The notes beneath the pieces were generated by a model, which was not told the origin of the DNA, made no database searches, and saw only the letters and a program-made list of their open reading frames with translations. Positions 11,291 to 11,959 of a stretch of 64,000 nt of DNA are shown here, in pieces. The stretch's first letter is position 1. Each line of letters starts with the position of its first letter. Location: NCBI RefSeq assembly GCF_988243305.1, contig NZ_OZ547136.1; one strand, written 5' to 3'. A program made the position numbers and the translations under genes.

Positions 11291-11959
11291 ATGCTCAAAT
11301 CAATGCCATCTATTCGCTATCACAAAATAGAATCATTTAATTATCGCCATATATGGGCCGTTGGTGATATTCATGGCGATTATCAATTATTACAATCCCG
11401 CTTACACCAACTCTCTTTTTGCCCCTAAACTGACTTACTTATTTCCGTAGGCGATAATATTGATCGTGGGCCGGATAGTCTTAACGTGCTACGCCTGTTA
11501 AACCAGCCCTGGTTTACATCGGTTAAAGGCAACCACGAGGCAATGGCGCTTGATGCCTTCGCGACTGGCGATGGCAATATGTGGCTTGCCAGTGGCGGTG
11601 ACTGGTTCTTTGAGTTAAATGATTCAGAACAAAAAGAAGCAATAGACCTGTTGCTTCGCTTTCATCATCTTCCGCATATTATAGAAATCACTAACGATAT
11701 TATAAAATATGTTATCGCACATGCAGATTATCCGGGTGATGAATATCAGTTTGGCAAGGAAGTAGCGGAAAGAGAGGTACTCTGGCCTGTTGATCGCGTG
11801 CAGAAATCACTCAAAGGCGAGTTAAAAGAAATAAACGGTGCCGACTGTTTTATCTTCGGGCATATGATGTTTACAAATATCCAGACATTTGCCAATCAGG
11901 TTTATATTGATACCGGCTCGCCGGAAAGCGGGCGGTTATCGTTTTATAAAATAAAATGA
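11291..11959 (+). pseudogene. pphB: Serine/threonine protein phosphatase 2 (PphB) interrupted by an in-frame TAA at codon 46
   Basis: Reads MLKSMPSIRYHKIESFNYRHIWAVGDIHGDYQLLQSRLHQLSFCP-stop (TAA at 11426-11428), then continues in the same frame ...DLLISVGDNIDRGPDSLNVLRLLNQPWFTSVKGNHEAMA... to 11959; metallophosphatase GDxHG and GNHE motifs lie on opposite sides of the stop. Confidence 0.8.

Follow-up and report, generated by a model that had tools for sequence, protein, structure and literature searches.

The pphB gene in the DNA analyzed here (the window, meaning the whole stretch of 64,000 nucleotides) is a known gene turned, in an ordinary way, into a nonsense pseudogene. Very probably the allele is null and was made by one transversion, which arose once, became fixed in its lineage, and did so before the lesions in the nearby ecdB and rpoS genes.

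The pphB frame is interrupted by a single stop codon

The features of the pphB locus were as follows.

10415..11278, + strand: intact Sel1/TPR-repeat gene, ending 12–24 nt upstream of pphB
11291, + strand: alternative pphB start ATG, adding 4 codons relative to ATG 11303
11303..11959, + strand: pphB (prpB) pseudogene, a 218-codon frame interrupted at codon 42
11363..11377, + strand: PPP motif I, GDIHG (residues 21–25; D22, H24), upstream of the stop
11426..11428, + strand: in-frame TAA (E42*), codon 42 from ATG 11303 and codon 46 from ATG 11291
11450..11470, + strand: PPP motif II, GDNIDRG (residues 50–56; D51, D54, R55), after the stop and before the first canonical restart
11486..11959, + strand: residual 157-aa ORF with a GTG start (residue 62), called as a truncated "Ser/Thr-protein phosphatase 2"
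11528..11539, + strand: PPP motif III, GNHE (residues 76–79; N77, H78), downstream of the stop
11965..12000, + strand: hairpin followed by a T-run, 3' of pphB (dG −17.8 kcal/mol, z = −4.2)

Translation of 11291–11959 indicated that the frame from ATG 11291 ends at TGA 11957–11959 with the terminus ...RLSFYKIK. TAA was the sole internal stop and directly followed ...LHQLSFCP (CAA CTC TCT TTT TGC CCC TAA ACT GAC TTA). An earlier note on this DNA had placed the TAA at 11426–11428 as codon 46; translation confirmed both the coordinates and the frame. In RefSeq, this allele is annotated from the second ATG, 11303 (MPSIRY...), which gives the standard PphB numbering used below.

With the stop repaired, the product is a lambda-phosphatase-like Ser/Thr phosphatase of the PPP family, as indicated by its translation, its Pfam match, and its match to lambda phosphatase. 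The repaired protein scored 56.9 bits against Pfam Metallophos (PF00149; cut-off 21.5) and matched lambda phosphatase 1G5B with E = 7e-60 over residues 6–216. The mutS-adjoining position and near-identity to annotated pphB agreed with this assignment. All three PPP motifs (defined as in PMC535813) were found in one frame, split by the stop. The earlier note had the frame continuing past the stop through the conserved metallophosphatase motifs; motifs II and III are indeed downstream, but motif I is upstream. The frame is interrupted by TAA at codon 42, and the locus is filed as a pphB pseudogene, not as a functional PPP-family member.

The intact Sel1/TPR-repeat gene and pphB are likely co-transcribed, judging from their spacing. 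The hairpin and T-run at 11965–12000 are probably an intrinsic terminator. From the gene order, pphB closes its transcription unit and the neighboring ecdD points toward it, so that polar effects of the stop on genes beyond pphB are not expected.

The stop replaces a glutamate codon

The closest annotated intact pphB was that of E. coli 118UI, with 99.7% DNA identity. The two sequences differed at 2 positions in 669 bp, 11426 and 11692. At 11426, G in 118UI is T in the window, changing CCC GAA ACT to CCC TAA ACT. The difference at 11692 is a synonymous third-position one, ACC in 118UI and ACT in the window. Apart from E42*, the conceptual PphB was 100% identical in amino acids to the intact 218-aa protein of 118UI (WP_001139307.1). 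This bears out the earlier note, which saw the gene as intact but for one nonsense codon and proposed a comparison with other E. coli alleles to identify the replaced residue: it is Glu (GAA) in the nearest intact allele.

Codon 42 is GAA (Glu) in 118UI, GN25, and Nissle 1917, AAA (Lys) in K-12, and TAA in the window; the stop thus sits where orthologues have a sense codon. Read from the GAA alleles, the lesion is a single G-to-T transversion that would have turned Glu-42 (GAA) into ochre TAA.

The Nissle 1917 allele has a peculiarity of its own. Its PphB (positions 307–963 of the fetched locus L008) has GDNIDHG as motif II, with His replacing the conserved Arg of GDXXDRG. This His may change the enzyme activity of an allele annotated as "intact." We take Nissle 1917 to be a B2 strain.

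The same stop occurs in independent sequence data

The TAA was absent from all 5,426 complete RefSeq E. coli genomes, and the 181 complete RefSeq genomes that matched a 61-mer around it each had one base difference. Both results fit a sequencing or assembly error, with the gene intact in the organism. However, at least seven other samples, represented by nine fetched loci, carry the identical TAA: GCA_966574595.1, GCA_017598645.1, GCA_974490345.1, GCA_045572375.1, and ENA ERZ1741622, whose five loci were fetched via the 157-aa ORF and all carried the exact TAA-bearing 61-mer; GCA_040707375.1, in which no gene was called at pphB; and ERR15423954. These sequences come from different pipelines (NCBI, ENA, and Logan). 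Eight of the nine loci (L002–L006, L010, L014, and L015) had no difference from the window within the 722-bp pphB region, 11279–12000; L014 is a second fetch of L002's contig, and the ninth locus was compared at the stop position only. The Logan assembly of run ERR15423954 was 100% identical to the window across 12,549 bp, TAA included.

Gene calls of the residual 157-aa ORF were on record in 256 index blocks. Its product was found on 162 contigs, and the intact 218-aa allele on at least 1,000. The records of the short product are named "Serine/threonine-protein phosphatase 2 [Escherichia coli]" (RDP19234.1, RDP62169.1). A look-up with the Sel1 protein, a route to carriers that is independent of the pphB sequence, gave 24 contigs resolving to two representative places, with the TAA in both. 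An exact look-up of the 45-aa N-terminal peptide gave no match, because gene callers leave such a peptide unreported.

The truncated product on 162 contigs and the position of the TAA outside any homopolymer also speak against an error. Sequencing error, which the earlier note had named as one way in which its reading could fail, was excluded because the identical TAA occurs in independent assemblies and in read-derived Logan contigs; we give it next to no probability. The nonsense lesion was thus reproducible in independent sequence data. Literature searches found nothing specific on a described pphB pseudogene.

The stop would leave every predicted product without a complete active site

The product from the normal start has 41 residues (45 from ATG 11291) and contains PPP motif I only. 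The first canonical start in frame beyond the stop is GTG (residue 62); two ATG codons (residues 81 and 93) and then others follow. In the alignment of PphB to lambda phosphatase, D22, H24, D51, R55, N77, and H78 correspond to D20, H22, D49, R53, N75, and H76, respectively. We take D20, H22, D49, N75, and others to be the metal ligands of lambda phosphatase (1G5B). A restart at residue 62 lacks the equivalents of three lambda metal ligands (D22, H24, and D51) and R55. In the PPP family, motifs I and II hold most of the metal ligands (PMC535813).

The downstream part might be translated from an internal start and work as a shorter phosphatase. The 157-aa ORF from GTG 11486 does exist, annotation pipelines call it as a gene, and a weak sigma-70-like match lies at 11430–11458. 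The promoter scan gave such matches no more often than in shuffled sequence, leaving an internal promoter without support, and GTG 11486 is not preceded by a clear Shine–Dalgarno sequence. Moreover, the fragment from residue 62 is without motif I (D22, H24) and motif II (D51, D54, R55), and it scored 20.5 bits against Pfam Metallophos, below the 21.5 cut-off. Motif I would be missing even from a non-canonical restart right after the stop. A functional product from an internal start had been the other way in which the earlier note could have been overturned, and it fails on the same ground, as motifs I and II cannot be restored. We regard a working restart product as exceedingly improbable.

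Readthrough or suppression of the stop, sufficient for useful amounts of full-length PphB, would agree with the downstream frame being perfectly preserved in every carrier examined, as under continued selection. However, outside the recombination tracts described below, the carriers have only a few isolated differences per 12.4 kb; with carriers so similar here, a 657-bp pseudogene would be expected to stay unchanged under neutrality as well. TAA is neither the selenocysteine (UGA) nor the pyrrolysine (UAG) codon, and E. coli generally terminates efficiently at it. No recoding signal stands out on reading the sequence around the stop. Low-level readthrough of UAA may occur, as may suppression by a tRNA encoded outside this 64-kb stretch, but useful amounts of full-length PphB are highly improbable.

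As predicted from the translated frames, no combination of pphB products would hold a complete active site, and a functional phosphatase from this locus is very unlikely. PphB activity is almost certainly lost, and the allele null, because the stop splits the motifs, the restart products are incomplete, and TAA is not a selenocysteine or pyrrolysine codon.

The pphB stop precedes the ecdB and rpoS lesions

Two further genes of the segment are disrupted.

13665-14267, − strand: ecdB, with a 1-bp deletion at 13734 causing a 3' frameshift
14942-15920, − strand: rpoS, with a 14-bp deletion, TCAACATACGCAAC, at about 15494 (gene nt 427–440, codon 143)

The rpoS deletion is a frameshift giving a 182-aa product without sigma regions 3 and 4, in place of the intact 330 aa. 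The earlier note had located the rpoS lesion 3.5 kb away from the pphB stop. The lesion is real, but the deletion lies 4.1 kb from the TAA; 3.5 kb is the distance to the rpoS 3' end. EcdB is a UbiX/Pad1-like flavin prenyltransferase of the hydroxyarylic acid decarboxylase operon. Its frameshift alters the protein from residue 179, replacing the last approximately 19 residues and giving 200 aa instead of 197. Because the alignments with the homologues 1SBZ and fungal PAD1 6QLG run to about residue 186, the frameshift touches the last conserved residues of EcdB.

Only two Logan runs, ERR15423954 and ERR15422816, turned up with the deleted rpoS, and each agreed with the window at 100% identity. 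In all other pphB-TAA carriers examined, among them L002–L006, RpoS was intact with 330 aa. The ecdB deletion was present in the window, L002, L003, L006, L010, L014, and L015; it was missing from the TAA carriers L004 and L005 and from 118UI. The TAA itself was found on at least four flanking haplotypes differing by recombination tracts. About 30 differences cluster at 14671–14963 in L003 and about 32 lie at 13271–13983 in L005, and nlpD differs in both as well. The carriers also have a few isolated SNPs, such as 11169 in the Sel1 gene. The clusters look like recombination tracts superimposed on a TAA-bearing backbone.

The order of the lesions follows from their distribution among the TAA carriers: the pphB stop is older than several flank recombination tracts, the ecdB frameshift, and the rpoS deletion. 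In the order that we propose, pphB E42* would have arisen once in an E. coli lineage and become fixed, being in all carriers; the single origin is proposed because the few carriers sampled have identical pphB sequences. A sub-lineage would then have gained the 1-bp deletion at the 3' end of ecdB, or else recombination would have repaired ecdB in L004 and L005. Lastly, the window's own clone would have gained the 14-bp frameshifting rpoS deletion. Mutations in rpoS are common in stored or cultured isolates. The pphB stop is not a private or culture-age mutation, since it is older than two further lesions.

The earlier note had called the inactivation recent and counted two independent gene losses in the segment. 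The pphB region 11279–12000 was identical in all eight TAA loci examined over its length, so there has been no further decay, in keeping with a recent event. The lesion is nevertheless lineage-fixed (162 contigs), present on at least four flank haplotypes, and earlier than two other lesions. The losses of pphB and rpoS are independent, as rpoS is intact in L002–L006, but the lesions number three, ecdB included.

The best complete RefSeq match to the window had 99.0% identity over 7000–18000 among the 5,426 E. coli genomes. Over 28000–52000, the best match was 98.8%, reached by only two genomes, and the other matches listed were at about 97%. The source lineage is without a close relative among these 5,426 genomes. 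The best-matching strains differ between the two intervals, and this part of the chromosome is therefore mosaic. No MLST or phylogroup marker falls within the window.

A nearly universal gene lost in one lineage

A sensitive blastn search found pphB in 5,411 of the 5,426 complete genomes, with coverage of at least 80% in 5,376. A megablast search, which found it in 3,519 of the 5,426, would have made pphB an accessory gene; blastn identified that count as a sensitivity artefact. The near-universality of pphB suggests that the gene is normally maintained by selection, which makes a fixed knockout somewhat unexpected.

The gene order in the window is mutS, Sel1, pphB, ecdD, ecdC, ecdB, marR/slyA-like, and rpoS, without o454/ygbN, and mutS is intact. 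Of about 60 genes checked in the window against reference proteins of two related genomes, only pphB, ecdB, and rpoS were disrupted. All three disrupted genes (11426–15494) lie within 4.2 kb, in the variable mutS–rpoS segment. The clustering, a post hoc observation, is suggestive of relaxed selection on this segment. It also raised the idea of a Shigella source, which was rejected because public records name the proteins E. coli and because every other gene checked in the window is intact, with a single IS element present.

The loss of pphB might have been selected instead of neutral, for example through rewired envelope or heat-stress signaling, in line with the later loss of rpoS. The gene is kept in about 99% of complete genomes and yet its knockout is fixed here (162 contigs), and the only three disrupted genes of about 60 checked sit within 4.2 kb. 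However, the gene was lost only once, in one lineage, nothing points to convergent inactivation elsewhere, and the rpoS lesion is confined to the clone to which the window belongs. Fixation through drift, or through hitch-hiking during clonal descent, is simpler, and a selected loss is unlikely. Because there was one event in one lineage with no sign of convergence, we keep drift or hitch-hiking as the default reading of the fixation of the pphB stop.

The knockout shows that loss of pphB is compatible with persistence of a lineage, despite the presence of the gene in about 99% of complete E. coli genomes. The carriers are natural PphB knockouts and could be used for studying this little-characterized phosphatase, although the significance is small. 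For the physiology of the strain, the rpoS deletion weighs more than the pphB stop. The database entries of a 157-aa "Ser/Thr-protein phosphatase 2" (e.g., RDP19234.1) are pseudogene fragments, not a short phosphatase. It is very doubtful that the knockout is adaptive, or that the 157-aa product is an expressed, catalytically dead "pseudophosphatase" still binding PphB substrates. Were either true, the lineage would offer a natural experiment on an E. coli phosphatase that is nearly universal yet poorly understood.

Other features of the window

A 448-aa ORF at 59284–60630 (+ strand) lies between a YgcG-family gene, which ends at 59185, and eno (60685–61983). We take this ORF to be an IS4-type transposase. 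It looks like an insertion, because in the closest complete genome about 60 bp separate the two flanking genes. This was the one IS element in the window.

A long type I-E CRISPR array with the repeat CGGTTTATCCCCGCTGRCGCGGGGAACTC extends over about 26069–28110 and adjoins an intact cas operon, cas2e to cas3, at 28523–37171. Within the array, 26069–26523 repeats with a period of 182 bp (93% identity), suggesting that repeat-spacer units have been duplicated. A second CRISPR array is probably located between ygcE and queE, at about 53400–54700, where the ORF 53997–54440 appears to translate CRISPR-like repeats.

Comparison with known systems

Four o454–nlpD patterns (I–IV) have been described in the mutS–rpoS variable region of E. 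coli, size-typed by PCR (PMC4209514). The window resembles EDL933-type pattern I of that paper in having yclC/kpdC-family ecdBCD and a slyA-like MarR gene between pphB and rpoS, and in lacking o454/ygbN. Unlike pattern I, it has an extra Sel1/TPR gene between mutS and pphB and carries lesions in pphB, ecdB, and rpoS; the paper does not contain this pphB stop. The arrangement in K-12 differs, with pphB followed by ygbI-ltnD-otnK and no Sel1 gene, and the gene for K-12 PphB (WP_001141337.1; protein-serine/threonine phosphatase 2) is only about 85% identical in DNA to the window allele.

PrpB, PrpA, and lambda phosphatase have been placed in one group (PMC535813). Lambda phosphatase (1G5B) is homologous to PphB along its full length, with the same motif order. 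It is an intact phage protein, used here only for mapping catalytic residues to the two sides of the stop.

The nearest system is that of 118UI, which has the same gene order, mutS-Sel1-pphB-ecdDCB-marR-rpoS. Its PphB (WP_001139307.1) is encoded at the same locus adjoining mutS, by 218 codons, and has all three PPP motifs. The window pphB differs in its TAA at codon 42, so that the full-length protein is not encoded.
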